A stretch of DNA of 64,000 nt from an uncultured Acidimicrobiales bacterium. Lineage in GTDB: Bacteria; Actinomycetota; Acidimicrobiia; Acidimicrobiales; VFJN01. Below are positions 46,670 through 62,587 of the stretch, one piece after another (the first letter of the stretch is position 1; each line of letters starts with the position of its first letter). The translations under genes and the position numbers were made by a program. The stretch is from positions 1,834,889 through 1,898,888 of the forward strand of contig CAWJGJ010000001.1 in the NCBI GenBank assembly GCA_963842395.1, given 5' to 3'. The notes under the pieces are model-generated. The model ran no database searches. It was given only the letters and a program-made list of their open reading frames with translations, and had not been told where the DNA came from.

Positions 46670-48238
46670 ATGGGAGGCGCTGAACACATGGAGCAGGCCA
46701 GAGGCCCGGCTCGTCGCGCCCGGCACTCCGATGATCCCGTGGTTGGCGCGGGCCCGGTCCGGGACGCCCGGCTCCGGACCGCGGGCGTCACCCTGGCGAT
46801 CGTCGCCCTCGTCCTGATCCCCGTGAGCCGGCTCGCCGCCGGCACCGCCGACACCGATGTCCTCTCCCTGGTCGGCGCGTCCCTGGCGGCTCTGCTGCTG
46901 TTCGCCTCGGCCTGGCTCGATGTCATCGTCTGGCGCCTCACCGGGGATGCGAGGTCGGTGTACCTGGCGGCCGCCACCCTGAGCCTGGGCGCCGTCCCGG
47001 TCGTGCTGGGCGTGATCGTGCCCGGGCTGGGCGTGATCGTGCCCGGGCTGGCCGAGTCCGCCGTGCTCGATCAGGCCCGGCCCGCGGTCGCCCTCGCAGG
47101 TATTCCGGCCCTCGTCGTGCTCACTGTCGCGGCGCGCACCGCGGCGACGCTCACCGTCCGCAGCGTCAGGTTCGTGATCGGCGTCCTCATGGCCGTCACG
47201 GCCGGCGTGGCGGTCGCCCTCGCCGTGCCGGGGCTCCGCACCCTGACCCACGAGCACGGGATCTCGCTGCCGCTGGCCGGGCCCGCCAGGTCCATCGCTC
47301 TCGCCTCGGCGTTCGCGGTGGTGGCCGCCATCCACGCCGGCGCCACCCGCCGCCGATCGGGTCGACTCCTATCGTGGTCGGGGCTCGCCCTGGCCGGTGT
47401 CGGCGTCGCCTACGCGATCGACGCGGTCGGCGGCGACATGGCCCAGCCCGCGGCCTGGCTGATGACGTCGGCCGCGGTGGCCGTCGGCCTCTACGGCACG
47501 TCGGTCGAGCTGCAGCGCACGCACGACGCCGAGCAACGCGAAGCACGGGATGCGGTCGCCGTCGCCTCCGTCACCGCATCGCGAGCCATGGCCGTTCACG
47601 AGATCCATCAGGAGCACCGGCACGAGGCCCGGGCCGCCCTGCTCGGAATCGAAGCGGCGGCCCAGTGCCTGAGCCGGCACCGTCTCCGGCTCACCGCCGA
47701 CGAGCAGCGGGAGCTCTCCTCGGGGCTGGTGGCCGAGATCCAGCGGCTGCGGTCCCTCGTCGAGGACGCGGCCCGCCGTTCGACCGCGTTCGACCTCCGC
47801 GAGGCGATCATGCCGGTGGTGAGCTGCAGCCGTGCCGACGGGCTCACGGTGCGGGCCGACATCCCGGCCGGGCTCGAGGTCGAAGGCGTCCCCGAGAGCA
47901 CGGCCCAGGTCGTCCTCTCCCTGCTGACCAACGCCCGGTGCCACGCACCCGGCTCGGCCGTCGAGCTACGCGCCGAACCGGGCGAGCGGGAGATCGCCCT
48001 CTTCGTCGAGGATCGCGGCCCCGGCATTCCCGATGCCCTCGAGGACCCGGTGTTCGAGCGCGCGGCGCGCGGCCCGGGCAGCCGCGGGTCGGGGCTCGGG
48101 CTGTTCGTCGCTCGCCGGTTGATGGCCCGGCAGCGGGGTTCGATCGACGTCGGCCGGCGGCCGGGCGGCGGAAGCTCGTTCGTCGTGCGCCTGCCCAGGT
48201 CCCAACGCCCGGCGGAATCCGTCGGGGCGGCCTCCTGA
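46670..48238 (+). CDS. sensor histidine kinase with multi-TM N-terminal domain
   Basis: ATG after GGAGA. About 8 TM segments. H-box HEHRHEARAALLGIEAAAQ. ATP-lid GSGLGLFVARRL. Confidence 0.8.
   Translation: MGGAEHMEQARGPARRARHSDDPVVGAGPVRDARLRTAGVTLAIVALVLIPVSRLAAGTADTDVLSLVGASLAALLLFASAWLDVIVWRLTGDARSVYLAAATLSLGAVPVVLGVIVPGLGVIVPGLAESAVLDQARPAVALAGIPALVVLTVAARTAATLTVRSVRFVIGVLMAVTAGVAVALAVPGLRTLTHEHGISLPLAGPARSIALASAFAVVAAIHAGATRRRSGRLLSWSGLALAGVGVAYAIDAVGGDMAQPAAWLMTSAAVAVGLYGTSVELQRTHDAEQREARDAVAVASVTASRAMAVHEIHQEHRHEARAALLGIEAAAQCLSRHRLRLTADEQRELSSGLVAEIQRLRSLVEDAARRSTAFDLREAIMPVVSCSRADGLTVRADIPAGLEVEGVPESTAQVVLSLLTNARCHAPGSAVELRAEPGEREIALFVEDRGPGIPDALEDPVFERAARGPGSRGSGLGLFVARRLMARQRGSIDVGRRPGGGSSFVVRLPRSQRPAESVGAAS
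47006..47047 (+). repeat. perfect 21-bp tandem duplication inside the kinase gene
   Basis: CTGGGCGTGATCGTGCCCGGG occurs twice back to back (47006-47026, 47027-47047). It is in frame and duplicates LGVIVPG in a TM segment. Confidence 0.9.
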
Positions 48239-48951
48239 TGCACCGGATCCTCATCGTCGACGACCACCCCCTCGTCGCCATCGGCCTCCGGCTGGCGCTG
48301 CGGTCGCGGGGCTGGGACGTCGAGGTCGCCGACGGGCCGACCGTCGACGCCGTGCTCGATCGGGCCCGGGCCTTCGAGCCCGAGTGCGTGCTGCTCGACC
48401 TCCACCTCGGTGAGCTCGGCAACGGCCGCGACCTGATCGGTCCCCTGCTGGAGACGAGCCGGGCGGTGGTGATGCTGACCGGTGAGACCGATCGCCTCCT
48501 GCTCGCCGCCTGCCTCGAGGCCGGAGCCGACGGCTGGATCGGCAAGGGCGCGTTCCTCGACGACATCGTCGTCCAGGTCGAGGACGCCCTCGCTGGACGA
48601 CCGATCGTCGGGGTGGCGAGGCGCCAGGAGCTGCTGGACGACCTGCGGGTGCACCGAGCGAGCCTGGAGCGGTCCCGGTCGCCGTTCGAGCGCCTGACGC
48701 TCCGCGAGCAACGGGTGTTGGGGGCGCTCGTCAACGGGCTGTCCGGCGAGGAGATCGCTGCGGCCCACTTCGTGGCGGTGACCACCGTGCGCACCCAGGT
48801 CCGAGGGATCCTCCAGAAGCTCGGCGTCCGCTCGCAGCTCGCGGCTGTCGCCACCGCCAACCGGGCCGGCTGGACGGCGCCGATCGACGACGCCGAGGCC
48901 GCCGAGCCCAGCCGAACCGACGACGACGCCCGGCGACCGGTGTCCCTCTGA
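48238..48951 (+). CDS. NarL/LuxR-family response regulator
   Basis: A TGATG overlap links it to the kinase. Receiver domain (ILIVDDHPLV...VLLDLHL...MLTGE...GKGA) plus LuxR HTH (LTLREQRVLGALVNGLSGEEIAAAHFVAVTTVRTQVRGIL). Confidence 0.85.
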   Translation: MHRILIVDDHPLVAIGLRLALRSRGWDVEVADGPTVDAVLDRARAFEPECVLLDLHLGELGNGRDLIGPLLETSRAVVMLTGETDRLLLAACLEAGADGWIGKGAFLDDIVVQVEDALAGRPIVGVARRQELLDDLRVHRASLERSRSPFERLTLREQRVLGALVNGLSGEEIAAAHFVAVTTVRTQVRGILQKLGVRSQLAAVATANRAGWTAPIDDAEAAEPSRTDDDARRPVSL

Positions 48952-49255: not shown

Positions 49256-49339
49256 AGCGGCTCGCGGAACGTTCACCCAGACTTGCATCATCTCCTCCGC
49301 AACGGGCGGAGGTGCGGATATCAGGAGATTCATCTTTCA

Positions 49340-49522
49340 ATGCTGAGCATCATTTCGTTCATCCAGACGTTCTTCGCTGACCGCCGTGACGACGACAAGG
49401 GCGCCGCGATGGTCGAGTACGGCCTCCTCGTGGCCGGCATCGCCGTGGTCGTCGGTGCTGCCGCCGTCCTTCTTGGCGGTGCGATCACCGGCCTCTTCAA
49501 CGACGTCATCGCCGCGCTCTGA
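49340..49522 (+). CDS. flp: Flp-family type IVb pilin
   Basis: 60 aa. KG/AAMVEYGLLVAGIAVVVGAA (G-x4-EY). Confidence 0.8.
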   Translation: MLSIISFIQTFFADRRDDDKGAAMVEYGLLVAGIAVVVGAAAVLLGGAITGLFNDVIAAL

Positions 49523-49536
49523 TAAGCGCAGGGATC

Positions 49537-49572
49537 GGCGGGAGCGGGCGTCCGACGATGCCCGCTCCCGCC
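49537..49572 (+). terminator. strong hairpin after the pilin genes (terminator/attenuator candidate)
   Basis: Perfect 13-bp stem GGCGGGAGCGGGC / GCCCGCTCCCGCC with a 10-nt loop, 15 nt after the flp-2 stop. No U-tract. Confidence 0.55.
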
Positions 49573-49608
49573 TCCCACAAACCTCTTACCGAAGCTCGGA
49601 GAAGCTCG

Positions 49609-49980
49609 ATGATGTCCAGAATCAAGCGTGACGACCGGGGTGCGGCGATGGTGGAGTTCGCCATCGTGCTGCCGGTCCTGGTGCTGATCCTGCTGGGCAT
49701 CATCGAGTTCGGCCGGGCCTACAACGCCCAGGTGTCGATCCAGGCCGCCGCCCGAGAGGGCGCCCGGGAGCTCGCCCTGCGCCACAGCTCGACCGAGGTG
49801 GAGAGCGCCACCCGCGACGGAGCCCCCACGGTGACCATCGACGGCATCGCCCAGAGCCCCTGCCCGGCGACGGGCGACGGCAAGGCGAAGGTGACGATCA
49901 CCGAGTCGTTCTCGTTCATGGTCCTGCCGTTCGGAGCGCTCGACCTCACTGCCACGGGAGCCATGCGATGCGGTCTCTGA
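49609..49980 (+). CDS. tadE: TadE-like pseudopilin
   Basis: ATG 49609 after GGAGAAG. RG/AAMVEFAIVLPVLVLILLGIIEFG is the TadE/TadF N-terminal signature. Confidence 0.8.
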   Translation: MMSRIKRDDRGAAMVEFAIVLPVLVLILLGIIEFGRAYNAQVSIQAAAREGARELALRHSSTEVESATRDGAPTVTIDGIAQSPCPATGDGKAKVTITESFSFMVLPFGALDLTATGAMRCGL

Positions 49981-50978
49981 TCCGATCCCGAACCCGCCGC
50001 GACGACGCCGGCGCGGTAATGGTCTTCGTCGGGATCATGATGGTCGTCCTGCTCGGCATGGGCGCCCTCGTCATCGACGTCGGCCAGCTCTACGCCGAGC
50101 GCCGCGAGCTCCAGAACGGCGCCGACGCCGCCGCGCTGGCGGTGGCCCAGGACTGCGCCGGTGGCGACTGCCTCGACGAGCCGACCACCGCCGGCACGTA
50201 CGCCGACGAGAACGCCCACGACGGCAACGCCGCCGTAGAGGAGGTCTGCGGATCCGGCCCCGGGCTCACCGCCTGCGCCACACCCACTGCGGACGTCCCG
50301 GCCAGCAACTGGGTGAAGGTCACCACCGTGACGCCCGACGACGACAAGGTCGACTTCGCCTTCGCCCCGATCCTCGGCCACGACGCCGGGACGGTCGACG
50401 CCACCGCGCTGGCTGCGTGGGGCGCTGTCGGCGGGGCGACGACCCTGCCCGTCACCTTCTCCGAGTGCGAGTACCTCGAGCTCGGCGGCGACGTCGACGC
50501 CGGCACCTTCCCGAGCGGGCTCAACTACATCTACTTCCACGACAACGACGACGCCGGCACATGCCCGGCGGGCCCGTCCGGGGCAGACCTCCCCGGCGGC
50601 TTCGGCTGGCTCGACAGCTCGGACGAGTGCGGCGTCGAGGTGACGGCCGACGGCTGGATCGACGACAAGACCGGCAACGGGGTTCCCAACGACTGTGAGC
50701 CGTCCGACTGGCGGTCCGCCGAGGTCCTGGTCCCCATATTCGATCGCACGAATGACCTCAATGGATCCAATGGCGAATACCACGTTGCCGGCTTCGTCGG
50801 CTTCCGCGTATCCGGCTACCGGTTCCCCGGAAACGAGTGGCAGAACGGCTTCCCGTGCGGACCAAAGCCCAAGGGCGGCACGACCTACCTCTGCGGCGAG
50901 TTCACGCAGGTGGTCACCACCGGCGAGATCAGCAATGGCCCCGACTACGGCGCTCGCGCCATCGAAATGATCGGCTAA
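49968..50978 (+). CDS. tadG: TadG-like (Tad_N) minor pilin/pilus assembly protein
   Basis: N-terminus RRDDAGAVMVFVGIMMVVLLGMGALVIDVGQLYAERRELQNGADAAALA is typical of TadG/Tad_N proteins. The extracellular part is Cys-containing. Confidence 0.7.
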   Translation: MRSLIRSRTRRDDAGAVMVFVGIMMVVLLGMGALVIDVGQLYAERRELQNGADAAALAVAQDCAGGDCLDEPTTAGTYADENAHDGNAAVEEVCGSGPGLTACATPTADVPASNWVKVTTVTPDDDKVDFAFAPILGHDAGTVDATALAAWGAVGGATTLPVTFSECEYLELGGDVDAGTFPSGLNYIYFHDNDDAGTCPAGPSGADLPGGFGWLDSSDECGVEVTADGWIDDKTGNGVPNDCEPSDWRSAEVLVPIFDRTNDLNGSNGEYHVAGFVGFRVSGYRFPGNEWQNGFPCGPKPKGGTTYLCGEFTQVVTTGEISNGPDYGARAIEMIG

Positions 50979-51022
50979 CCGGTCATGTCTCCCCAGCACA
51001 CCATCACAAGGACACCCACCCC

Positions 51023-51805
51023 ATGAAGCGCAAGATCATCGGCGTCCTGGCCGCCCTGCTGCTGGCCGGCATCGGTACCACCGCCCTCGTCGTCTACGTG
51101 GAATCGGCCAAGGACAAGGCTGTCGCCGCCGAGGCGCTGGTCGACGTCTACGTGGTCAGCGAGACTGTCCCGAAGGGCACGCCCGTCAGCGAGCTCGCCC
51201 AGTCGGTCGAGGTGACCGAGGTGCCGGCGAAGGTGCTGGCCGACGACGCCGTCACCGACCTGGACGCCCTCGACGAGGGCCTCACGGCCGCCGTCGACCT
51301 CGAGGCCGGCGAGCAGCTGCTCAGCAGCCGGCTCGTGGCCGCCAACCAGCTCGGCCGGGCCTCGGTGCCCGCCGGGCTCCAGGAGCTGACCGTCTCCCTC
51401 GACCCCACCCGGGCCGTGGGCGGGGCGCTCAACGTCGGTGACACGGTCGGCGTCGTCCTCTCCTTCGAGCCGTTCGACCTTCCCCGCACCGAGGACCAGT
51501 CGCCCAGCACGACCCACCTCACCTTCCACAAGGTCCTGGTGACCGCGGTCCAGTTCGCTGAGGGCGACGGCCAGGGCACGACCGCCGCCACCGACGACGA
51601 AGACAGCGACGACACGGACGCCGAGCCGGCGCCCAGCAACCAGGTGCTCGTGACGCTGGCCCTGTCCTCTCCCCAGGTCGAGCAGGTCGTGTTCGGCGCC
51701 GAGTTCGGCCACATCTGGCTGACGGCGGAGAACGCCGACGCCGACGAGGCCGGCACCCGGATCGTCACCCTCGGCGAGGCCTACGAGCCGGCGACGGCAC
51801 GATGA
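51023..51805 (+). CDS. cpaB: CpaB/RcpC Flp pilus assembly protein (SAF domain)
   Basis: N-terminal TM (IIGVLAALLLAGIGTTALVVYV) followed by a SAF-like segment (VDVYVVSETVPKGTPVS). Confidence 0.75.
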   Translation: MKRKIIGVLAALLLAGIGTTALVVYVESAKDKAVAAEALVDVYVVSETVPKGTPVSELAQSVEVTEVPAKVLADDAVTDLDALDEGLTAAVDLEAGEQLLSSRLVAANQLGRASVPAGLQELTVSLDPTRAVGGALNVGDTVGVVLSFEPFDLPRTEDQSPSTTHLTFHKVLVTAVQFAEGDGQGTTAATDDEDSDDTDAEPAPSNQVLVTLALSSPQVEQVVFGAEFGHIWLTAENADADEAGTRIVTLGEAYEPATAR

Positions 51806-53010
51806 CCGTCGCCCTCGTCACCGAGAGCTACGAGCTGGCCGACCGGGTCCGGTCGCTGACCGGCACCGATCGTCCGCTGCACCTCCAGGCGTGGCGCAAC
51901 GGCCAGGCGTTCGACGCCGAGCGCATCGTGCGCGAGGTCGACGCCGAGACCGCATCCGTCGTGTGCATCGGCGACGACGTCCCGCTGGACCTCGCCATCC
52001 AGGTGGCGGCCGTCGCCGACCGTGACCACCGGGCCGACATGCCGGTCGTGCTGGTGGCGACCCCGTCGAACGATCTCTGGCGCGACGCAGTGCGGGCCGG
52101 GGTGCGCGACATCGTCGATCCTCACCTGGTCGACGCCGAGCTCGAGCCCGCGCTGGGGCGGGCTCTGGAGTGGACGGCCCGCCTGCGGGCGGGTGGGCCG
52201 TCCGCTCCGCCTCCTCCCCCCAAGTCGGGACGGGTCATCGTCGTGCTCTCCCCCAAGGGGGGCTCGGGCAAGACGATGGTGGCGTCCAACCTCACCGCCG
52301 CCCTCGCCCAACAGGTCGACGGATCGGTCGCCCTCGTCGACCTCGACGTGCAGTTCGGCGATGCCGCCTACGCGCTCGGGCTGGTTCCCGAGCACACCAT
52401 CGGCCAGCTGGCGGCGGCGCCCACGCTCGACGCCACGGCCCTCAAGGTCTTCCTCACCCGCCACGACCCGTCGGGGGCCTACGTGCTCTGCGGCGCGGAG
52501 TCGCCAGAGGAGGGCGAGGCCGTCACCGACGAGCTCGCGTGCCGGGTCGTCGAGCTGCTCGCCCGCGACGTCGCCTACGTCGTCGTCGACACGCCGGCGG
52601 GGCTCGATGAGCGCACGCTCAGCGTGCTCGCGCTGGCCACCGACGTCGTCCTCGTGTCGAGCCTCGACGTCTCGAGCATCCGCAACCTGGGCAAGGAGAT
52701 CGACGTCCTCGAGCGCGTCGGCCTGCTGCCGGAGTCGCGCCACTTCGTGCTCAACCGCTCCGACGCCCGGGTGGGCATCGAACCCGCCGACGTCGAGGCG
52801 GCCCTCGGGATGAAGATCGACACCGCAGTCCCGAGCTCACGGGCGATCCCGTTCTCGATGAACCAGGGACGCCCGATCGTCATCGAGGAGCCGAACTCGC
52901 ACGCGGCGCGGGCGCTGACGGCGTTCACGCGCCGGTTCGTGGACGTCGGGGCAACCGAGACCGCACCGGAGCCCCGGACGGGGTTCCTCCGCCGGAAGAA
53001 GGATCGATGA
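51802..53010 (+). CDS. tadZ: TadZ/CpaE ParA-MinD-like ATPase with N-terminal receiver-like domain
   Basis: Deviant Walker A VLSPKGGSGKTMVASNL. ATGA overlap with cpaB. Confidence 0.8.
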   Translation: MTVALVTESYELADRVRSLTGTDRPLHLQAWRNGQAFDAERIVREVDAETASVVCIGDDVPLDLAIQVAAVADRDHRADMPVVLVATPSNDLWRDAVRAGVRDIVDPHLVDAELEPALGRALEWTARLRAGGPSAPPPPPKSGRVIVVLSPKGGSGKTMVASNLTAALAQQVDGSVALVDLDVQFGDAAYALGLVPEHTIGQLAAAPTLDATALKVFLTRHDPSGAYVLCGAESPEEGEAVTDELACRVVELLARDVAYVVVDTPAGLDERTLSVLALATDVVLVSSLDVSSIRNLGKEIDVLERVGLLPESRHFVLNRSDARVGIEPADVEAALGMKIDTAVPSSRAIPFSMNQGRPIVIEEPNSHAARALTAFTRRFVDVGATETAPEPRTGFLRRKKDR

Positions 53011-54398
53011 GCCTGTCCGAGAGGCTGCGCGAGCAGACCGACACCGCCCCCGAGCGCTCCGCACTCGACTTCAGCTCGCCGCGTTCGGCGGCCGAGCCCG
53101 TCGCCGTCGACGCGGTGACCGAGATGAAGACCCGGGCCCACGATGCGCTGTTCGCCCGGCTCGGCCTCCGGCTGTTCGACTCGACGCTGAGCCAGGAACA
53201 GCTCCACACCTACGTCGCCCAGGAGATCGGCGACCTGATGGCGTCCGCCCCCGCGCTCCTGTCGGCGGCCGAGCGGCAGCAGCTCGTCGCGGAGATCATG
53301 GACGACGTCGTCGGCCTCGGTCCCATCGAACGGCTCCTCGACGACCCCACGATCTCCGAGGTGATGGTCAACGCCACCGACTTCATCTACGTCGAGCGTC
53401 ACGGCGTGATCGAGTCGACCGACGCCCGCTTCCTCTCCAGCGACCACCTCCGGCGGGTCATCGAGCGCATCGTCGCCCAGGTGGGGCGGCGCATCGATGA
53501 GTCGTCGCCGATGGTCGACGCCCGCCTGGCCGACGGCTCCCGCGTGAACGCGGTGATCCCGCCGCTGGCCGTCGACGGGCCCATGCTCACCATCCGCAAG
53601 TTCTCCCGCGACCCGCTGCAGGTCGACGACCTCGTCGGGCTCGGCACCCTCACGCCGGCGCTCGCCGAGCTGATCTCGGCCTGCGTCCGCGGCGGCCTGA
53701 ACATCCTCGTGTCCGGCGGGACCGGCACCGGCAAGACGACGCTGCTCAACGTGCTGTCGTCGTTCGTGCCCGACACCGAGCGCATCGTCACGATCGAGGA
53801 CGCGGTGGAGCTCCAGCTCCGCCAGCGCCACGTGATCCGCCTCGAGAGCCGTCCCCCCAACGTGGAGGGCCGAGGCGAGGTCAAGATCCGCGACCTGGTC
53901 CGCAACTCCCTGCGCATGCGGCCCGACCGGATCATCGTCGGCGAGGTCCGCGGGGCCGAGACGCTCGACATGCTCCAGGCCATGAACACCGGGCACGACG
54001 GATCGATCTCGACCGTCCACGCCAACTCTCCCCGGGACGCGTTGTCCCGGCTCGAGACGATGGTGCTGATGGCAGGGTTCGACCTGCCCACCCGCGCCAT
54101 CCGGGAGCAGGTCGCGTCCGCCGTGCACCTCATCATCCACCTGCAGCGGTTCCGCGACGGCAGCCGCCGCGTGTCGCAGGTGTCGGAGGTGGTCGGCATG
54201 GAGGGCGAGGTCATCACCCTGTCCGACCTCTACACGTTCGACCACGGCGCCGGCATCGACGCCGACGGTCGCTTCCTGGGCCGCGTCCGGCCCACCGGCA
54301 TCCGCCCCACGTTCTCGGACCACCTCGGCGAGCTCGGCATCGAGCTGCCGGCCGAGATGTTCGGCGAGACCGACCTCTTCCTCGCCGGTCGGCTGTGA
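53007..54398 (+). CDS. tadA: TadA/CpaF secretion ATPase
   Basis: Walker A VSGGTGTGKTTLLN, Asp box, Walker B IIVGEVRGAE, His box NTGHDGSISTVHAN. Confidence 0.9.
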   Translation: MSLSERLREQTDTAPERSALDFSSPRSAAEPVAVDAVTEMKTRAHDALFARLGLRLFDSTLSQEQLHTYVAQEIGDLMASAPALLSAAERQQLVAEIMDDVVGLGPIERLLDDPTISEVMVNATDFIYVERHGVIESTDARFLSSDHLRRVIERIVAQVGRRIDESSPMVDARLADGSRVNAVIPPLAVDGPMLTIRKFSRDPLQVDDLVGLGTLTPALAELISACVRGGLNILVSGGTGTGKTTLLNVLSSFVPDTERIVTIEDAVELQLRQRHVIRLESRPPNVEGRGEVKIRDLVRNSLRMRPDRIIVGEVRGAETLDMLQAMNTGHDGSISTVHANSPRDALSRLETMVLMAGFDLPTRAIREQVASAVHLIIHLQRFRDGSRRVSQVSEVVGMEGEVITLSDLYTFDHGAGIDADGRFLGRVRPTGIRPTFSDHLGELGIELPAEMFGETDLFLAGRL

Positions 54399-56284
54399 GC
54401 CCGATGCGCAACGTGACCACGGTCCTCGGCGCGCTCGTCGCCGCCGTCCTCCTCGCGGGGACGCCCGCCGGCGCCCAGCCGGCGGACGCGCTCGACATCA
54501 CCTCGGTCGACACCGCCGGCTACCCGGCCGTCACCGCCGTCGTCACCGCGCCTCCGGGCCTGCGTGGCGCCGGCTACCCGGCGTCGGCCTTCGAGGTGAC
54601 CGAGGACGGCGAGCCGGTCGACTTCACCGTGCAGCGGGTGCCCACGTCGAGCCTCGAGATCATGCTCGTGGTCGACACGTCCGGCAGCATGGTGGGGGCG
54701 CCGATCGAGGCCGCCCGCGCCGCGGCCAACGAGTTCCTCTCCGTGCTCCCCGCCGACACCCGCGTCGGCGTCGTGGCCTTCGGGTCGGAGCCCTCGCTCA
54801 TCGCCCGACCGACCACCGACCGGGCCCTGCTCGGGTCGCGGGTCGCCCGGCTGACGGCGTCCGGCGAGACCGCGCTCTACGACGCGGTCGCCTTCACCAA
54901 GTCACAGTTCACCGCCGATGCCCGCGACCGGGCGATCGTCCTGCTGTCCGACGGTGGCGACACCGCGAGCACCACGACCCTCGACCAGGCGGCGGCTGCC
55001 GGGATACGGACCAACGTGATCGAGCTCGTCACCGGCGAGAGCAACCGCGCCGTCCTCGGCCGCCTGGCCGCCGCCGGCGGCGGCAGCGTGTCCTCGGTCG
55101 CCGACCCCGCCGCCCTGGCCGGTCTCTACCGCGCCGCGGCCGCCAGCCTCGCCAACCAGTACCGGGTCACCTACGAGACGTCGAGTCACGGCCCCGTGGC
55201 GCTGACCGTGCAGGTCACGACCCCGGACGGGACTCTGGATACCACGACCGACGTCGACCTCCCGGCCGCGGCAACGCCGGCGGCTGCCAGCTCTCCGACC
55301 TCCAGTACGGCGCCGACGGCGGACGGCACCGGGCTGGAGCCGGGGCAGGTCGCCCTCATCGTCGGCGCCGCCGCCATCTTCCTGGCGCTGGTGACCCTGA
55401 CCCTGGTCGGCCTGTCGGTCGACCGCAGGAGCCGCAACGCCCGGGCCCAGCTCGGCGTGCAGCGGAGCCACCTAAGCGGGCCGGCCGTCACCCACCTGGC
55501 CGACCGCATGACGGCGGCGGCCGACGGCTACCTCGAACGGCGCGACCAGCGCCGCACCCTGGCCGCCGCCCTCGAGTCGGCCAGCATCTCGCTGCGGCCG
55601 GGCGAGTTCATCGTGCTGGCCGGCATCGCCACGCTGCTCGCCGGCCTCGCCGGCCTCGCGCTCGGCGGCCCGCTCGTCGGCATCCTCCTGGCCGTCCTGG
55701 TGCCGCTCGTCGCCCGGTTCGTGGTCGGCCACCTCGCCGAGCGGCGACGGGACAAGTTCGCCGAGATGCTGCCCGACACCCTCCAGATGCTGACGAGCAC
55801 CCTCCGGTCGGGCTACGCCCTGCTCCAGGCGCTCGACAGCGTGGCCCAGGAGGCCGCCGAACCGGCCCGGAGCGAGTTCCGCCGGGTGCTGCTCGAGATC
55901 CGCGTGGGACGCGACCTGTCGGCCGCGCTGCGCGCCCTCTCCGACCGCATGCGGAACAAGGACTTCGCCTGGGTGGTCGGCGCCATCGAGATCAACCGGG
56001 AGGTCGGCGGCGACCTGGCCGCCGTGCTCGAGAGCACGGCGGACACGATCCGGGAGCGCCAGCGCGTCTTCCGGCAGATGCGGGCCCTCACCGCCGAGGG
56101 CCGCCTCTCGGGCGTCATCCTCACCGCACTGCCGGTCGTCGTCGCCCTGGCGATGAAGTTCATCAACCCGGCGGCCTTCGCCCAGCTCACCTCGGGCCTC
56201 GGCCTGATGATGTCGGCGGGATGCGGCGTCCTCCTGGCCGTCGGGTGGTTCTGGATGAAGATGTTGAACCGGATCGAGTTCTGA
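54395..56284 (+). CDS. tadB: secreted VWA domain fused to TadB (T2SSF) platform protein
   Basis: Signal peptide (LGALVAAVLLAGTPAGAQPADA). VWA MIDAS VVDTSGSM...GETALYDA...LLSDGGDT. Pro/Ala/Ser/Thr linker, then a TM, then a T2SSF domain (LPDTLQMLTSTLRSGYALLQAL...). Confidence 0.8.
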   Translation: MSPMRNVTTVLGALVAAVLLAGTPAGAQPADALDITSVDTAGYPAVTAVVTAPPGLRGAGYPASAFEVTEDGEPVDFTVQRVPTSSLEIMLVVDTSGSMVGAPIEAARAAANEFLSVLPADTRVGVVAFGSEPSLIARPTTDRALLGSRVARLTASGETALYDAVAFTKSQFTADARDRAIVLLSDGGDTASTTTLDQAAAAGIRTNVIELVTGESNRAVLGRLAAAGGGSVSSVADPAALAGLYRAAAASLANQYRVTYETSSHGPVALTVQVTTPDGTLDTTTDVDLPAAATPAAASSPTSSTAPTADGTGLEPGQVALIVGAAAIFLALVTLTLVGLSVDRRSRNARAQLGVQRSHLSGPAVTHLADRMTAAADGYLERRDQRRTLAAALESASISLRPGEFIVLAGIATLLAGLAGLALGGPLVGILLAVLVPLVARFVVGHLAERRRDKFAEMLPDTLQMLTSTLRSGYALLQALDSVAQEAAEPARSEFRRVLLEIRVGRDLSAALRALSDRMRNKDFAWVVGAIEINREVGGDLAAVLESTADTIRERQRVFRQMRALTAEGRLSGVILTALPVVVALAMKFINPAAFAQLTSGLGLMMSAGCGVLLAVGWFWMKMLNRIEF

Positions 56285-56291
56285 CGGAGAC

Positions 56292-57215
56292 ATGACGATG
56301 AACATTTCCCTTCTCATCGGCTCCGCGGCCGTCCTCGGCTCCCTCCTCGCCCTCTGGTGGGCGGTGACCGGGGCGCGGCCCGCCCGAGCCGGCGTCGATC
56401 TCGGCGGTGTCCGCCGACCGGCGGACCTCGACCTGCGGGCCGCCACGCTCCAGCGGGACGTGGGCGAGCGGACCCTCGTGCCGCTCGTCGCCCGCCTCGC
56501 CGGGCTGACCCGGCGGTACACCCCGCGGGCGCGGATCGCCGGCCTCGAGCAGCGGCTGCTGCTGGCCGGCGCGTCCGGCGGCTGGACCCTGGAGCGGGTC
56601 CTGGCTGTCAAGGCGCTGTTCGCCCTGGCCGGCGCGGCCCTCGCCCTGCTCCGTCTGATGGCGGCCCCCAGCTTCGTCGGCGTGCTGCTCTCGCTGGGGC
56701 TCGGTGTCTTCGGCTTCTTCCTCCCGGACGTCCTGCTGCGCATCAAGACCGACAATCGCCAGAAGGTCATCCGGCGGGAACTGGCCGACACCGTCGACCA
56801 GCTCACGATCGCCGTCCAGGCCGGCCTCGGTCTCGACGCCGCCATCGCCCGCCTGGGCGTCACCGGCGAGGGACCGCTCGCCGCCGAGTTCGCCCGGGTG
56901 AGCCAGGACGTGCGGGCGGGCATGCGCCGGGGCAACGCGCTGCTGACGATGTCCGACCGCGTGCAGCTCCCCGAGCTCCGGCAGCTCGTCGTGGCCCTGG
57001 CCCAGGCCGAGAAGCTGGGCGTGCCGATCGCTCAGACGATGAAGGTGCAGGCCGCCGAGCTGCGCCTGAAGCGGCGGCAGCACGCCGAGGAGCAGGCGAT
57101 GAAGCTGCCCGTCAAGATCCTCTTGCCCATGATGTTCTGCATCCTGCCCTGCCTGTTCGTCGTGATCCTGGGCCCGGCGGCGATGAGCATCTTCGAAACC
57201 CTCTCTCAAGGCTGA
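56292..57215 (+). CDS. tadC: TadC (T2SSF) platform protein
   Basis: 307 aa. T2SSF domain (LADTVDQLTIAVQAGLGLDAAI...) with terminal TM helices. Confidence 0.8.
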   Translation: MTMNISLLIGSAAVLGSLLALWWAVTGARPARAGVDLGGVRRPADLDLRAATLQRDVGERTLVPLVARLAGLTRRYTPRARIAGLEQRLLLAGASGGWTLERVLAVKALFALAGAALALLRLMAAPSFVGVLLSLGLGVFGFFLPDVLLRIKTDNRQKVIRRELADTVDQLTIAVQAGLGLDAAIARLGVTGEGPLAAEFARVSQDVRAGMRRGNALLTMSDRVQLPELRQLVVALAQAEKLGVPIAQTMKVQAAELRLKRRQHAEEQAMKLPVKILLPMMFCILPCLFVVILGPAAMSIFETLSQG

Positions 57216-57218
57216 CCC

Positions 57219-58250
57219 ATGAGCTCGACCATCACGTCAACCAACGGCCGCGCCCGCCGGGGGGAGATGCGCACCGCGCTCACCACCCTGGCCGAGCTGC
57301 ACGAGGCCACGATCGACGGCCCGTACGACTCGTCGTGCGCCACCGGGTTCAGCCCCCTCGACGAGGTGCTGTCCGGCGGCATCCGTCCCGGGGAGGTGCT
57401 CCTCGTCGGGGGCAAGCCCGGCGTCGGCAAGACCATCGCCTGCCTCCAGTGGGCGAGGAACATGGCCCGGCAAGGGATCGTCGCCGTCTACCTCTGCTAC
57501 GAGCACGACCCGCTCACCCTCCTGGCCCGGCTGCTCGCCTGCGAGCTCGGTGAGGTCGCCCGCGCCGCGGGCCGCCATCTCGACCTCGGCATCGAGGAGC
57601 TGCAGGGCCGGCTGCGCGACGTCGCCGCCGGCGTGCTGACGCTGCGCGACGCGCTCGACTCCGACCCGATGCTCGAGGAGGCCGAGCGCCAGTTCGTCGC
57701 CTACGCGGACCGCCTCGTCCTGTTCCAGGGCTCCGGCGCCCGCACCAACGTTCCGTCCATCGGCGATGCGTTGAGCAGGTACATCGGCGAGCCGATCGTC
57801 CTGTTCGTCGACTACGTGCAGAAGGTGCCGGTGGTGCCCGAGATCGCCACGGAGTCGGAGCGGGTGAGCCGGGTGATCGAGAGCCTCAAGGAGCTCGCCC
57901 TCGAGCAGAACATCGGCGTCGTGGCCGTGGCCGCCGCCGACCAGGACGGCCTCACCGCCCGGCGCCTGCACCTGCACCACTTCCGGGGCTCGACCGCCCT
58001 CGCCTACGAGGCGGACGGCGTGATCGTGCTCAACGAGAAGCTGGCCGTCGTGTCTCGGGCGCACGCCGCCTACGCGCCGACCCGGATCGAGGAGTTCCGC
58101 AGCCAGGTCGTCTTCTCCGTGGAGAAGAACCGCAGCGGCGCCGCCGACATCGACCTCGAGTTCACCAAGGACTTCACCCACTACCGGTTCGACCCCAAGG
58201 GCACCTGGGCGGCCGACCGGTTGTGGACCGAGGGATCCGTCGAGACGTGA
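57219..58250 (+). CDS. RecA-superfamily ATPase, KaiC/RadA/DnaB_C-like, inside the Tad operon
   Basis: 343 aa. TGFSPLDEVLSGGIRPGEVLLVGGKPGVGKT (Walker A with the KaiC/RadA-type LD..L.GGI lead-in) and Walker B-like IVLFVDYVQKV. 3 nt after the tadC stop, with a GTGA overlap to the peptidase gene. Confidence 0.7.
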   Translation: MSSTITSTNGRARRGEMRTALTTLAELHEATIDGPYDSSCATGFSPLDEVLSGGIRPGEVLLVGGKPGVGKTIACLQWARNMARQGIVAVYLCYEHDPLTLLARLLACELGEVARAAGRHLDLGIEELQGRLRDVAAGVLTLRDALDSDPMLEEAERQFVAYADRLVLFQGSGARTNVPSIGDALSRYIGEPIVLFVDYVQKVPVVPEIATESERVSRVIESLKELALEQNIGVVAVAAADQDGLTARRLHLHHFRGSTALAYEADGVIVLNEKLAVVSRAHAAYAPTRIEEFRSQVVFSVEKNRSGAADIDLEFTKDFTHYRFDPKGTWAADRLWTEGSVET

Positions 58251-58912
58251 TCGGCGTCCTGGTCGCCCTGTGTGCCGTGGCCGGGTGGGCGATCGGCATC
58301 CTCCTCCGGCCGGTCGTCGACCGGGTGACGGCCGAGCGAGCCCCCGGCCGCGCGCCGACGGGGCGCTCCCGCCTCGTCGCGCCGGTCACCGGCGTGCTGT
58401 TCGGGGCGACGGCGTGGGGCTTCGGCTGGACGTGGTCCCTCCCGGCCTACCTGGCGCTCGCCGCCTTCCTGGTCGTGCTCACGTTCATCGATCTCGACAC
58501 CAAGACTCTGCCCCGGCGCATGGTCTGGGCCGCCGGCGCCACCGGCGTCGGGCTGCTGGCCGGGGCGGCGATCGCCGCCGGCGAGCCCCAGCGGATCATC
58601 ACGGCCGCCGTCGGGGCGGTGATCGCGTACGTGCTCCTGTGTGCGCTGCACATCCTGACCCCGGGAGGCCTCGGGTACGGCGACGTCCGGCTCGGCGCGG
58701 TCCTCGGCTGGTACCTCGGGTGGCAGAGCCTGTCGCTGGTGATCACGGGCCTGCTGGCCGCGTTCGTGGTGGGCGCGGCCATCGGCGTCGTCCTCATGGT
58801 CGTCGGTCGGGCGGGTCGGCGGACCGAGGTCCCCTTCGGTCCCGCCCTGGCGATCGGGGCCTTCCTCGTGCTCCTCGCCACCCCCGTCGCCGGCTCGACC
58901 CCACTCCTCTGA
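58247..58912 (+). CDS. tadV: A24-family prepilin peptidase (TadV/CpaA)
   Basis: Polytopic. Catalytic Asp motifs FIDLDTKTLP and GGLGYGDVRLG. GTG 58247 is preferred; the tracked ORF start is 58223. Confidence 0.8.
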   Translation: MIGVLVALCAVAGWAIGILLRPVVDRVTAERAPGRAPTGRSRLVAPVTGVLFGATAWGFGWTWSLPAYLALAAFLVVLTFIDLDTKTLPRRMVWAAGATGVGLLAGAAIAAGEPQRIITAAVGAVIAYVLLCALHILTPGGLGYGDVRLGAVLGWYLGWQSLSLVITGLLAAFVVGAAIGVVLMVVGRAGRRTEVPFGPALAIGAFLVLLATPVAGSTPLL

Positions 58913-58965: not shown

Positions 58966-59823
58966 TCAGGGCGCGGGCGAGCCGAGGCCCGCGTGCGGGC
59001 TCCGGGGATGCTGCTCGTGAAACGCCATGAGGCGAGCGACCCACTCCTCGGGGTGGGTGGCGTGGGGGAGGTGACCGGCTCCCTCGAGGACCTCCACCCG
59101 CGCCGTGGGCACCAGCTTCCCGAGCTCGGCGATCACGGCAGCGAACAGCCCGGGGCTCTCGGTGCCGTGCGTCAGCAACAGGGGCACCGCCGTCCTCGCC
59201 AGCGCGGCGGTGTCGATCGACAGGGCGGTCTGGTCATCGAGCTCGTCGAGGAAGGTGGGGGCGTTCGCCTCCAGCACGGCCCTGAACGGCTCCGGGAGGT
59301 CATTCCACGTACCCGGCCCCAGAGCGACGTGCTCGACGAAGTGTTCGGCCGCATCGCGGTGGTCCCCCGAATCGATCAGGTCCCGCACGACCGCGAGGGC
59401 GGCGTCAGCGGCCGCCAGCTCGTCGACGAGAGCCTGCTCGCGCGTCCCCTCGAGAAGGCCCCACAGCGGCGGCTCGTGGACCGTGGCGGTGGCGACCAGC
59501 TCGGGGCGTGCGGTGAGGAGCGTCAAGGTGACGATCGCGCCGTACGAGTTGCCGGCGACGTGCACGGGTTCGTCACTCACATGCTCGATCAACCCCGCGA
59601 GGTCAGCAGCATCCTCGGCGCGACTGCCGGGCCCGTCGCCCGCCTGGCTGCGCGAGTGACCGCGCCGGTCCCAGACCACGACCTCGTACCGCTCGGCCAG
59701 CCGGGCCGCGGCCCGGTCCCAACCGGTCCCGTCGGTCCACGACCCGTGGGTCAGGACGACGCAGTCCCCGGTCCCGCTGATCTCGTGGTAGAGCTCGACA
59801 CCGTTCACCATCGTGGTCGCCAT
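58966..59823 (-). CDS. alpha/beta-fold hydrolase
   Basis: ATG 59823. Motifs VVLTHGSW (HG), the nucleophile elbow VAGNSYG and C-terminal GAGHLPH. Confidence 0.8.
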   Translation of the reverse strand: MATTMVNGVELYHEISGTGDCVVLTHGSWTDGTGWDRAAARLAERYEVVVWDRRGHSRSQAGDGPGSRAEDAADLAGLIEHVSDEPVHVAGNSYGAIVTLTLLTARPELVATATVHEPPLWGLLEGTREQALVDELAAADAALAVVRDLIDSGDHRDAAEHFVEHVALGPGTWNDLPEPFRAVLEANAPTFLDELDDQTALSIDTAALARTAVPLLLTHGTESPGLFAAVIAELGKLVPTARVEVLEGAGHLPHATHPEEWVARLMAFHEQHPRSPHAGLGSPAP

Positions 59824-59913
59824 CGCCCCTGTCCTTCCGTCGCTCGTCGGGCGCGACCACCATCGCCCAGGTCGGCGGCCGGGCACATCGGGCGTTCACC
59901 CCATCACCGCGTG

Positions 59914-60585
59914 TCACTCGTCAGCCGCGAGCCAGGCCTCGTACTCGTCGACCTGCGCGGGCCCGTAGGTGCCCCAACCGTCGACTCCGAGGCAGAACGG
60001 ATGTCCGGCGGGGTCGGCGTACACGAGGTTGTCCGGGCGCTCCGGCATCGGCAGGTGCACGGCTCCGAGGCGCTCGCCGCGCTCACGGACCGAGGGGTCG
60101 GCGAACGCCAGGTCCAGGTGGATCTGGGCCGGGTACGCCGGGTCCGGCCACCTCGGTGGCTGATGGGCGCCGTGATCATCGCCCGGTCTCACACCGCCAT
60201 CCAGGTAGAGGCAGAAGGGATGGCCGACCGCATCGGCGAGGACCCGATGGTCCGCCAGCTCCTCGAGCTTCGTCGCGCCGCATGACAGCACGAGGTCTTC
60301 GGCGCTGTCGAGGTCCCGTACACCGATGTCGAGGTGCACCTGGTGGGGACGGTCGGGGTCCCGCCACCTGGGCGGCGGATCCCGAGGCGCGTGCTCGAAG
60401 CCGATCTCCGGGGTGCGCCCGTCCTCGTGGATCAGCTTGTGGTAGCCGACGAAGATGTGCCGCATGCCGAGGAGCTCGCCGTACATCGCCGCGAGCGACG
60501 CGCCGCGCCCGGTGGTCCAGTAGTCGTCGCTCTCCGCTTCCGGGCCGGGATGCCCGATCTGGATGATGCCGATCAGCCCGCGCAT
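59914..60585 (-). CDS. tandem VOC/glyoxalase-like domain protein
   Basis: Two repeats ending ...LADAVGHPFCL and ...YADPAGHPFCL. The start at ATG 60585 is assumed; the tracked ORF start is 60648. Confidence 0.6.
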   Translation of the reverse strand: MRGLIGIIQIGHPGPEAESDDYWTTGRGASLAAMYGELLGMRHIFVGYHKLIHEDGRTPEIGFEHAPRDPPPRWRDPDRPHQVHLDIGVRDLDSAEDLVLSCGATKLEELADHRVLADAVGHPFCLYLDGGVRPGDDHGAHQPPRWPDPAYPAQIHLDLAFADPSVRERGERLGAVHLPMPERPDNLVYADPAGHPFCLGVDGWGTYGPAQVDEYEAWLAADE

Positions 60586-60727
60586 CCGGGCAGTGCCCCG
60601 TCCATGGACGTTCGTCTCGTCACGTCGTGTCAGGTTCGTCGCTGGCAAGGACGCAGGAGGAAGGCGCAGCCGTAGCTGCGGCGACGACGAGGACGCCGCC
60701 AGCGGCGGACCTGGCCGGCGTGGCGGG

Positions 60728-60751: not shown

Positions 60752-62587
60752 CTAGGTCTGTTGGGTGATGCGGACGTCGTCGACGCCGGCCTCGACGAGG
60801 CTGGCGGTCGCGGCGTCCGTGGCCTCGATCAGCAGGCGGACGGACTGGCCGCGGTACGTCGACAGGTCCACCGTCGCCGTGCCCCAGGTGCCGGCTCGAT
60901 TGCTGGCGGCGCCGAGCTGCTGGAACACCGTGGTCGTGGTGGTCCCCGCCACCACCCGGATGCGGAAGGCGTCGGCAGTGGACGAGTTGTTGAGGTGGGC
61001 CAGATACCACCGGGCCGACAGCGTGAGCGTGCCGGTCCCCGGCAGCGTGATGACCGGCGAGCGGACGCTCGTCAGGCCGCCGTCGACGTCGTTGGCGCCG
61101 GCGCTCGCCCCGGCCGTGGCGCCGGTGACCAGGTCGTTCGCGCCGCTGGTCGTGGTGCCCAGCTGCAGTGCCACGCCGGAGCTGGTGGCGGCCGGGTCGG
61201 CGCGCTGCCACGCCCCGCTGGTGGCCGTGTCGGTGGCGGTCGGGTTGGTCACCCAGCCGGTCGCCGCCTCGAAGTCGTCGGCGTACACGGTGGTCGGCGG
61301 GTTCCCGGTGCCGCAGGTGCCGCCGATGATCCGGTACGGGCAGTCGGCGAAGTCGATGAACGTGCGGACGGCGGCATCGTTGCGGGACGTCTCCCGGGTG
61401 ATGAAGGCGTCGTCGGGGTAGAAGCCGCCCTGGCCCGACTCGGGGAACATCTCGAACGTGTAGCTGAAGATGCGGTGCTGGCCCCACATCCAGTCGCCGA
61501 TCGAGCCGTCGGTGATGTACAGGTCGCTGGCCTGCTGGGGCGTGTAGCCGTTGGTGTTCGCCATGGAGGTGCCGAGAGCGGCGAACGCCTGGCGGTCGGT
61601 GGCGTTCAGTCCCGGCGCGGTGTCCGCGAACGTGTAGCCGAAGGGCCAGAGCACGAGCTCGCCGTAGGTGTGCCAGTCGATGTGCGAGGTGATGCGCTGG
61701 ACGCCGCCGATCACCCGCGAGTCCACGAAGCGCGCTACGACCCGCACCTCGGGGGCGGACTCCGGCGACGGGCCGCGGTATGTCTCGCTCGACGTCGAGC
61801 CCGAGGAGCCGCCGCAGCACCCCCAGTTGAAGGCCCAGTTGCGGTTGAGGTCGGTGCCGATCGCGGAGGACCCCGCGTTGGGCTGCCGGTTCTTGCGCCA
61901 CGAGCGGAACCCGGTGGTCGTCTTGTCGTACTCGCTGCCGTCGGGGTTGACGTTGGGGACGATCCAGATGACCCGGCTGTTCACCGCCTGGGTGACCTGC
62001 GGGTCGGTGCCGTAGCCGTCGGTGTAGGTGCGGAGGATCCGCAGCGCCATCTCGACCGTCAACACCTCGCGGGCGTGCTGGGAGGCGGTGAAGAGGACCT
62101 CCGGCTCGCCCTCCTCGGCGGCCACGTTGTCGCTGATCCTGAGGGCGACGATCTCGCGGCCCTGGTGCGAGGTGCCGATCACCCGCCGCTGCAGGATGGT
62201 CGGGTGATCCGCCACCGCCTGCGCGATCTCCGCGTTCATCTCGGCGAAGTCGTGGTACAGCTCGAAGCCGGGCGGCAGGACCAGGGCGGTGACCTCGTCC
62301 AGCGGCTCGACGGCGTAGCCGAGGGCGGCGATGGCCCGAGCCTCGCGGGGTGTGGCGGTCACCACCACGCCGTCGTCCTGCACCTCGTCGATGGCGGCGC
62401 CGGTGCGGGCCACGGCGGACCGCTGGCGGGCCGTGACCGGCCCGGCCACGTCGTAGCGGTCCGACGGCGACGGCTCAGGGTCGGGCGTCTGCGCTCCCGT
62501 CGGTTCGACGAGCGAGCCGGCCATCAGTGCAACCGCGGCCAGCGCGGCGATGAAGACGTGTCGTCTCACGACCATCCTCCAAACCAT
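60752..62587 (-). CDS. secreted M14 zinc carboxypeptidase with C-terminal accessory domain
   Basis: Signal peptide. Zn motif SQHAREVLTVE, NPDGSEY, WRKNR and HTYGELVLWPFGY. About 190 aa of Thr/Gly-rich beta-type C-terminal domain. The start is ambiguous (62569-62587). Confidence 0.8.
   Translation of the reverse strand: MVWRMVVRRHVFIAALAAVALMAGSLVEPTGAQTPDPEPSPSDRYDVAGPVTARQRSAVARTGAAIDEVQDDGVVVTATPREARAIAALGYAVEPLDEVTALVLPPGFELYHDFAEMNAEIAQAVADHPTILQRRVIGTSHQGREIVALRISDNVAAEEGEPEVLFTASQHAREVLTVEMALRILRTYTDGYGTDPQVTQAVNSRVIWIVPNVNPDGSEYDKTTTGFRSWRKNRQPNAGSSAIGTDLNRNWAFNWGCCGGSSGSTSSETYRGPSPESAPEVRVVARFVDSRVIGGVQRITSHIDWHTYGELVLWPFGYTFADTAPGLNATDRQAFAALGTSMANTNGYTPQQASDLYITDGSIGDWMWGQHRIFSYTFEMFPESGQGGFYPDDAFITRETSRNDAAVRTFIDFADCPYRIIGGTCGTGNPPTTVYADDFEAATGWVTNPTATDTATSGAWQRADPAATSSGVALQLGTTTSGANDLVTGATAGASAGANDVDGGLTSVRSPVITLPGTGTLTLSARWYLAHLNNSSTADAFRIRVVAGTTTTTVFQQLGAASNRAGTWGTATVDLSTYRGQSVRLLIEATDAATASLVEAGVDDVRITQQT

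Follow-up and report, generated by a model that had tools for sequence, protein, structure and literature searches.

An ATPase of the DnaB C-terminal-domain type associated with Tad pilus loci of uncultured Actinomycetota

A single bifunctional ATPase, CpaF/TadA, which is positioned by TadZ, is believed to drive Tad pili. What, then, is encoded by an additional ATPase gene in the Tad operon of an uncultured Acidimicrobiales bacterium (assembly GCA_963842395.1), does this gene belong to the pilus system, and what may its product do there? The gene is an open reading frame (ORF) with an ATG start that encodes 343 residues at positions 57219..58250 on the + strand of a 64,000-nucleotide (nt) stretch of contig CAWJGJ010000001.1, the whole of which is referred to below as the window. 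The initial annotation, made from the letters of the window alone, had described the product as a KaiC/DnaB_C-like ATPase of the RecA superfamily hard-wired into a Tad operon and as a possible bacterial analog of the archaellum protein ArlH (FlaH). Our analysis revealed that the protein is of the DnaB C-terminal-domain type. Its association with Tad loci is solid and unreported, its distribution is narrow, all of its known carriers are uncultured, and the function discussed below is one that we infer. One subgroup of uncultured Actinomycetota may possess a Tad machine with two ATPases, a situation known from the archaeal flagellum, and this conserved and apparently catalytically intact protein, co-inherited with one Tad lineage, is a new candidate component.

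A DnaB-type ATPase gene within a Tad operon

The gene is placed tightly between two core Tad genes. The stop codon of tadC (TGA, 57213-57215) is followed by CCC and then by the ATG of the ATPase gene at 57219, and the stop codon of the latter (TGA, 58248-58250) overlaps a GTG at 58247 (GTGA) that is in frame with the Peptidase_A24 ORF. These coordinates confirm what had been reported at the outset, namely, a 343-residue ORF starting 3 nt after the tadC stop, with its own stop overlapping the GTG of the prepilin peptidase gene. The successive junctions from CpaB to TadV amount to -4, -4, -4, +7, +3, and -4 nt, with the ATPase gene inside this run, and no terminator-like site was found between tadC and the ATPase gene. 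Pfam assignments show that Flp, TadE/G, CpaB, TadZ, TadA, TadB, TadC, and an A24 peptidase are clustered at this locus. The ATPase gene thus belongs to the Tad operon, to which it is coupled through its start (tadC) and its stop (tadV). The G+C content of the ORF by codon position (0.69/0.46/0.97; window G+C content, 72.6%) indicates a real gene. The antisense ORF 57237-58181 (-), of 314 residues, displays the mirror image of the ATPase gene (GC1, 0.97; GC3, 0.72) and was rejected as a gene because this codon G+C pattern identifies it as a high-G+C artifact; the same applies to many other long overlapping ORFs on both strands of the window.

Like the canonical Tad/Flp (type IVc) system, the locus encodes the monoderm-type set Flp, TadE, TadG-like protein, CpaB/RcpC, TadZ, TadA, TadB, TadC, and TadV. 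It differs from it by the addition of the DnaB-type ATPase, of a vWA-TadB fusion, and of an upstream pair consisting of a histidine kinase and a LuxR-type regulator. In agreement with the initial annotation, the Tad component list contains no such ATPase (PMC3244431), nor is one found in the text on Tad components of PMC6668835, and our literature search retrieved no description of a DnaB-like, KaiC-like, or RecA-like gene in Tad loci.

The sequence comparisons placed the protein next to DnaB. The window protein matched the Pfam family DnaB_C (PF03796) with an E value of 8.5e-20 (71.6 bits; cutoff, 27), and the Pfam KaiC "ATPase" family with 1.2e-9 (38.3 bits; gathering score, 26.6) over residues 41-102 only. 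Among the NCBIfam models, TIGR00665 (DnaB) scored highest, with 60.8 bits at a cutoff of 385.25, ahead of RadA (41.6 bits), archaeal KaiC models (~37 bits), and the FlaH model NF006320 (E value, 0.038; 13.6 bits; cutoff, 215); the protein reached the cutoff of none of the 25 families among the NCBIfam matches listed. When the 92 aligned members of its family were inspected, DnaB models matched all of them (best E value, 4e-28) and were stronger than FlaH in every case, whereas the FlaH model NF004723 matched 48 of the 92 (best, 8.5e-9) and was always the weaker one. A search with the family profile against PDB sequences retrieved Geobacillus DnaB in two stretches (1e-30), with profile positions 11-112 aligned to DnaB residues 156-261 and thus including the linker region, to which helix 20-29 of the window protein aligns. 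KaiC (2e-21) and RadA (3e-16) aligned only around the Walker A third, the KaiC chains being confined to profile positions 30-100. PHROG 19 (DnaB-like helicase) spans residues 41-331 in one stretch (1.9e-28).

The structural comparison gave the same picture. The AlphaFold2 model generated from the 92-sequence alignment had a mean predicted local distance difference test score (pLDDT) of 94.1 and a predicted template modeling score (pTM) of 0.92; it was used instead of an earlier, poor model from a 20-sequence alignment (pLDDT, 65.9; C terminus unmodeled). All 50 Foldseek matches listed from the PDB were DnaB, G40P, T4 gp41, or T7 gp4, with a best template modeling (TM) score of ~0.68 (query-normalized) or 0.80 (normalized to the isolated G40P ATPase domain), and neither a KaiC nor a FlaH chain was among these 50. 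The 343 residues form a single domain, in contrast to the circadian KaiC with its two tandem RecA domains and autokinase sites, and begin ~40 residues ahead of the RecA core; Pfam detected no DnaB N-terminal domain (PF00772) in the window protein, and none is encoded across the window. Judged from its sequence and predicted model, the protein is a DnaB C-terminal RecA-fold domain that carries a segment of the linker region and is devoid of the N-terminal domain. The proposed KaiC/ArlH type was therefore not borne out by the FlaH and DnaB scores or the Foldseek matches. Strictly speaking, the protein is of the DnaB C-terminal-domain type rather than KaiC/ArlH-like, so that any ArlH-like role would be convergent rather than inherited from an archaeal ancestor.

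Both motifs on which the first description had relied are present, TGFSPLDEVLSGGIRPGEVLLVGGKPGVGKT at residues 42-72 and IVLFVDYVQ at residues 193-201. The Walker A motif corresponds to G65-T72, the catalytic glutamate to E95 within CYEHD, and the Walker B aspartate to D198 within VDYVQK; D266 is contained in the H4-like motif FRGSTALAYEAD, and K303 and R305 within EKNRSG are candidates for the Lys/Arg finger. As counted over the 92-member family alignment, K71 is kept in 91 members, T72 in 86, and E95 (CYEHD) in 85, whereas D198 (VDYLQK), D266, and both K303 and R305 of EKNRxG are each kept in 92 of 92. We take EKNRxG to be the equivalent of the DnaB K-x-R finger KQRNG (K418/R420 in Geobacillus DnaB), which is our own reading of the sequence pattern, as the printed alignment ends before this motif. 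This near-invariant catalytic set, together with the finger, argues for an oligomeric, hydrolyzing ATPase that is under selection. The Gln of DnaB motif H3 (SQLSR), a residue through which DnaB/RecA-type motors couple ATP to DNA binding, has been lost, with SQ replaced by AA(A)D at A239/A240/D241 (found in 75, 48, and 55 of the 92 members, respectively). The DNA loop RESG of DnaB reads RGS in the family, where R256 occurs in 61 (66%) and G257 in 78 of the 92 members.

Compared with the superfamily 4 (SF4) helicase DnaB (Geobacillus structures 2VYE/4ESV and SPP1 G40P, 3BH0), the window protein is collinear through the C-terminal domain and the linker region and contains the Walker A motif, the H1a catalytic Glu, the Walker B motif VDYxQ, the H4-like motif, and the K-x-R finger. 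It differs by the missing N-terminal domain, the H3 replacement, a score far under the replicative cutoff, and its encoding in a pilus operon instead of a replication context. While it belongs to the DnaB_C domain family, the protein is no replicative DnaB.

An exhaustive profile search, which covered 1.84 billion representatives (clusters at 50% identity), defined a family of 261 clusters at an E value of <=1e-30. The number rose to 9,865 at 1e-10, where DnaB, KaiC, RadA, and others were included, and this jump indicates that the family is discrete. Its members have a typical length of ~320-350 residues and were found in metagenome-assembled genomes and metagenomes only; the named ones come from metagenome-assembled genomes of Acidimicrobiales, Acidimicrobiia, Nitriliruptorales, and unclassified Actinomycetota. 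Members are called "DnaB-like helicase C-terminal domain-containing protein" at NCBI. The name used at the Joint Genome Institute (JGI) for the members P0003, P0005, P0006, and many others, "replicative DNA helicase," is wrong; given to a family of ~340 residues without the N-terminal domain, it is a systematic misannotation, which the family assignment corrects.

Two proteins outside the family provide information on its origin. P0170 (locus L085, 2231-3706) and P0178 (locus L087, 8001-9560) are full-length DnaB-like proteins that, unlike the family, possess the DnaB N-terminal domain and are encoded in housekeeping contexts rather than in Tad loci, and both score far under the replicative DnaB cutoffs. 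The window protein shares 44% identity with the C-terminal domain of P0170. In both proteins the H3 Gln is absent and the same H3 variant is present, and both share the EHD, VDYLQKVP, and EKNR motifs with the family. These features point to an origin of the family from a divergent DnaB paralog after loss of the N-terminal domain, and P0170 and P0178 may represent the paralog lineage that was its likely source. The family would thus illustrate how the motor domain of a helicase can be put to a new use once its N-terminal domain has been lost.

A few members are longer. P0029 was rejected as a clue to a fusion, since its extra length is a read-through of the TadC C terminus, and P0159 had no informative neighbor genes. 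P0174 (locus L088, 1265-2620) contains an N-terminal extension of ~120 residues with LGxxLxxxGxxxxxxLxxALxxQ-like repeats and a weak match to DUF4388 (E value, 0.003); we presume that these repeats recall the N-terminal cyclic di-GMP-binding motif of MshEN/PilB. A Flp pilin gene is located ~400 nt 3' of the P0174 gene.

Linkage to Tad loci and distribution among them

A scan of species-representative genomes retrieved 365 relatives, and 80 loci were examined. Nine loci without upstream flank were left out, as were loci without Tad genes that had less than ~5 kb of flank, which resulted in 67 assessable loci. Tad genes were present within 10 kb in 59 of these 67. In 48 loci tadC was located directly upstream on the same strand (47 assigned by script, plus L079, in which the genes overlap), with gaps of ~6 to 180 nt between tadC and the ATPase gene, and in 11 loci the ATPase gene adjoined an inverted Tad cluster. 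Twelve loci were classed as free of Tad genes, of which the 8 with at least ~5 kb of upstream flank were assessable. TadV was found 3' of the ATPase gene only in the close relatives of the window. Even family members that are merely 30% identical were encoded in Tad loci, with two gene arrangements; the P0269 locus has the order TadG-RcpC-TadZ-TadA-vWA/TadB-TadC-ATPase, and the P0255 gene is near a Flp gene, directly before TadE-TadG-RcpC. The gene is thus hard-wired into Tad loci, as had been claimed, since tadC is the direct upstream neighbor in dozens of genome loci and adjacency to Tad genes is kept despite reordering.

Three assemblies contained two ATPase-positive Tad loci, each with a paralog of its own: L004/L018 (DASRJN01), L038/L079 (JBFJZV01), and L049/L080 (CAYFYE010000061.1). 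In L004/L018, each paralog was closest to the copy from a locus of the matching TadA/TadC type. Pairwise identities of the ATPase correlated with those of TadA (r = 0.73) and of TadC (r = 0.73); the value for TadA and TadC was 0.86. Two Tad loci are arranged in tandem in L049/L080, which are on one contig, and in L092.

The distribution of the gene among Tad loci was assessed by TadA-based sampling in metagenomes, which provided 80 loci with TadA sequences 51 to 67% identical to that of the window. The ATPase gene was present in only 2 of these 80, a locus being considered negative when no ATPase copy was found within the sequence covered. In a neighbor-joining tree of TadA, the ATPase-positive loci formed two pure clades, one of 36 leaves (35 positive and 1 with too little flank, i.e., 35 of 35 assessable) and one of 7 leaves, all positive. 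The 31 assessable negatives were all outside both clades, some of them in sister clades, and the two positives from the TadA-based sampling fell within the positive clades. Tad linkage and the restriction to two pure TadA clades show that the ATPase is an accessory specific to, and inherited along with, one Tad sub-lineage, found in Acidimicrobiia-like Actinomycetota. The position of the gene is conserved among relatives, but actinobacterial Tad loci do not generally carry it. The vWA-TadB fusion is common in related loci; as a predictor of the ATPase it was rejected, because several loci with the fusion have no ATPase gene.

Possible roles of the ATPase

We propose that the subunits of the DnaB-derived ATPase assemble into a ring, probably hexameric, in which ATP is bound at the subunit interfaces. 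This ring would contact the Tad machine from its cytoplasmic side, through the TadA hexamer, the TadB/TadC platform, or both. In this position it would act as a second, accessory nucleoside triphosphatase (NTPase) that gates or biases assembly, and would be a functional analog of ArlH/FlaH recruited independently from DnaB instead of KaiC stock. Ring formation and docking on TadA or TadB/TadC are suggested by the architecture of DnaB and by the precedent of FlaH (PMC5019145). By analogy, we consider it about evenly balanced whether a ring ATPase serves this Tad sub-lineage as second, accessory NTPase on the cytoplasmic side; of the readings considered here, this one is the best supported. A more specific version, in which the DnaB-derived ring is an integral part of the motor, stacked above or below the hexamer of TadA at the TadB/TadC platform to form a two-ring motor convergent with ArlH-ArlI, is tentative and would at present be a possibility rather than an expectation.

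The parallel with the archaellum has two sides. As in the case of ArlH/FlaH, the gene of one RecA-fold protein shares an operon with those of a TadA/ArlI-type ATPase and a TadB/TadC/ArlJ-type platform protein, and the window protein is a plausible ring former. Unlike ArlH/FlaH, it is on another branch of the RecA superfamily and has a DnaB-like linker region, and its gene follows tadC instead of preceding the motor ATPase gene, the gene order of the archaellum being arlH-arlI-arlJ. FlaH is a ring-forming protein of the RecA fold whose binding to FlaI depends on ATP but which did not hydrolyze ATP in vitro (PMC5019145), whereas the window protein keeps the complete catalytic set. Recurring KaiC-type ATPases have been reported in PMC4858521 for type IV pilus loci of archaea only. 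If docking on the motor is true, type IV filament machines would have acquired RecA-superfamily rings on at least two occasions, in archaea with KaiC-type ArlH and in bacteria with the DnaB-type protein, and these two recruitments would bear on the evolution of the archaellum-type motor architecture.

Several points weigh against an accessory motor ATPase. Eight loci with adequate flanks contain no Tad genes within 10 kb, which shows that the ATPase gene can be maintained with no Tad operon beside it. In three of these eight (L052, L078, and L015), the gene is near the histidine kinase gene, an adjacency that hints at a signaling role; a LuxR-type regulator, confirmed by Pfam in L052 only, lies there between the kinase and the ATPase gene. 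A 114-nt TadZ-like fragment with 63% protein identity in L015 (8761-8874, -), just 5' of the intact ATPase gene, may be what is left of an inverted Tad cluster that has disappeared. Furthermore, most Tad loci have no ATPase gene, including some with TadA 62 to 66% identical, and the ATPase is thus not needed for Tad function generally. The TadA tree is a neighbor-joining tree without support values, and ATPase-positive and -negative loci came from different samplings. The closest relatives of the protein are DNA motors and the family retains part of the loop by which DnaB binds DNA (R256 and G257), so that its substrate may be a nucleic acid. Finally, given the lack of hydrolysis by FlaH and the full catalytic set found here, the analogy to ArlH may be loose.

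The kinase adjacency is best considered together with a reading in which the ATPase forms a ring resembling a KaiC-type switch and, with the kinase and the LuxR regulator, sets the transcription of the Tad operon without contact to the motor. In the window, a histidine kinase and a LuxR response regulator (Pfam) are encoded directly 5' of Flp, and the same kinase type is found 5' of many ATPase-positive Tad loci with sufficient flank; L052, L078, and L015 are likewise in favor of this reading. The same kinase type was not seen in the 80 TadA-sampled, mostly ATPase-negative loci, where upstream flanks are often short, which makes its absence weak evidence. However, in most loci the ATPase gene is at the operon end opposite to the two-component system and tightly coupled to tadC, each of the duplicated Tad loci retains its own ATPase paralog, and the protein is of the DnaB and not the KaiC type, and we regard a signaling ATPase as rather unlikely. 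Translocation of single-stranded DNA by the DnaB-derived ring, coupling Tad to DNA uptake or export, is in keeping with the fact that all nearest relatives in sequence and structure are SF4 helicases, that the Lys/Arg finger and the H4-like motif with R256-G257-S258 are kept, and that the closest outgroup, P0170/P0178, consists of full-length DnaB-like proteins with the N-terminal domain. We judge such a nucleic acid motor improbable, as the family has no DnaB N-terminal domain, shows Ala/Asp throughout in place of the H3 Gln with its general role in coupling, and conserves the DNA-loop Arg to only two-thirds; no competence or DNA-processing genes were seen beside the window locus, and no DNA-related gene was conserved among the neighbors checked.

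Common descent with ArlH/FlaH was also considered. The view that Tad derives from an Epd-like archaeal system, on which the initial annotation had drawn, is found in the passages of PMC6668835 that concern these pili, where FlaH is described as the secondary ATPase of Epd pili, at the place where Tad has TadZ. A true ArlH/FlaH ortholog kept from this ancestor would be consistent with the Pfam KaiC gathering score, which was passed, and with the weak FlaH matches of about half of the aligned members. It is nevertheless very unlikely, since the KaiC match is confined to residues 41-102, DnaB models are the stronger ones in all aligned members, no KaiC or FlaH chain was among the Foldseek matches listed, the nearest relatives outside the family carry the DnaB N-terminal domain, and the gene is confined to a derived Tad sub-lineage, being neither basal nor widespread. 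There is next to no likelihood that a truncated replicative or prophage DnaB fragment lies in the Tad operon by chance. The JGI label and the best PHROG match, a DnaB-like helicase family, would be compatible with such an accident, but this match covers the helicase domain only, with no phage context. The conservation data refute it: the family is discrete and mostly uniform in length, its catalytic residues are near-invariant, and its position is kept in dozens of species. The ORF has a GC3 value of 0.97, no phage genes were found nearby, and no DnaB N-terminal domain is encoded in the window; the truncated DnaB that the initial annotation had named as a refuting case is thus not what was found.

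Features of the window and of three other loci

The features of the Tad locus, its neighbors, and the kinase regions of the three loci mentioned above are compiled in Table 1. A defense-system reading of the locus was rejected, as the only PADLOC match was below the threshold (E value, 7e-4).

Table 1. Coordinates of the Tad locus and adjacent genes in the window and of kinase regions in three other loci
Feature	Sequence	Coordinates	Strand	Basis and remarks
Histidine kinase, HATPase_c	Window	46670..48238	+	Pfam; 5' of Tad operon
LuxR-type response regulator, REC + GerE	Window	48235..48951	+	Pfam; ATG overlaps kinase stop
Flp pilin, Flp_Fap	Window	49283..49522	+	Pfam; true start probably internal to listed ORF
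TadE-like pseudopilin	Window	49558..49980	+	Pfam
TadG-like pseudopilin, Tad domain	Window	49968..50978	+	Pfam
cpaB/rcpC, SAF + RcpC domains	Window	50837..51805	+	Pfam; true start probably internal, near 51020
tadZ/cpaE, ParA/MinD-type ATPase	Window	51802..53010	+	Pfam
tadA/cpaF secretion ATPase, T2SSE	Window	53007..54398	+	Pfam
vWA-TadB (T2SSF) fusion, N-terminal predicted signal peptide	Window	54395..56284	+	Pfam; signal peptide by eye
tadC, T2SSF platform protein	Window	56292..57215	+	Pfam; stop 3 nt 5' of ATPase start
ATPase, DnaB C-terminal-domain type, stand-alone	Window	57219..58250	+	343 residues; Pfam DnaB_C
tadV prepilin peptidase, Peptidase_A24	Window	58247..58912	+	Pfam; alternative in-frame GTG at 58223
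Alpha/beta hydrolase	Window	58966-59886	-	
Glyoxalase_6-domain protein	Window	59914-60648	-	
M14 zinc carboxypeptidase	Window	60752-62587	-	
Kinase region	L052	7229-9496		
Kinase region	L078	7316-8872		
Kinase region	L015	7594-8163		

The three genes 3' of tadV, for the hydrolase, the Glyoxalase_6-domain protein, and the M14 carboxypeptidase, are on the opposite strand; they appear to be unrelated to the Tad cluster and to mark the end of the operon.

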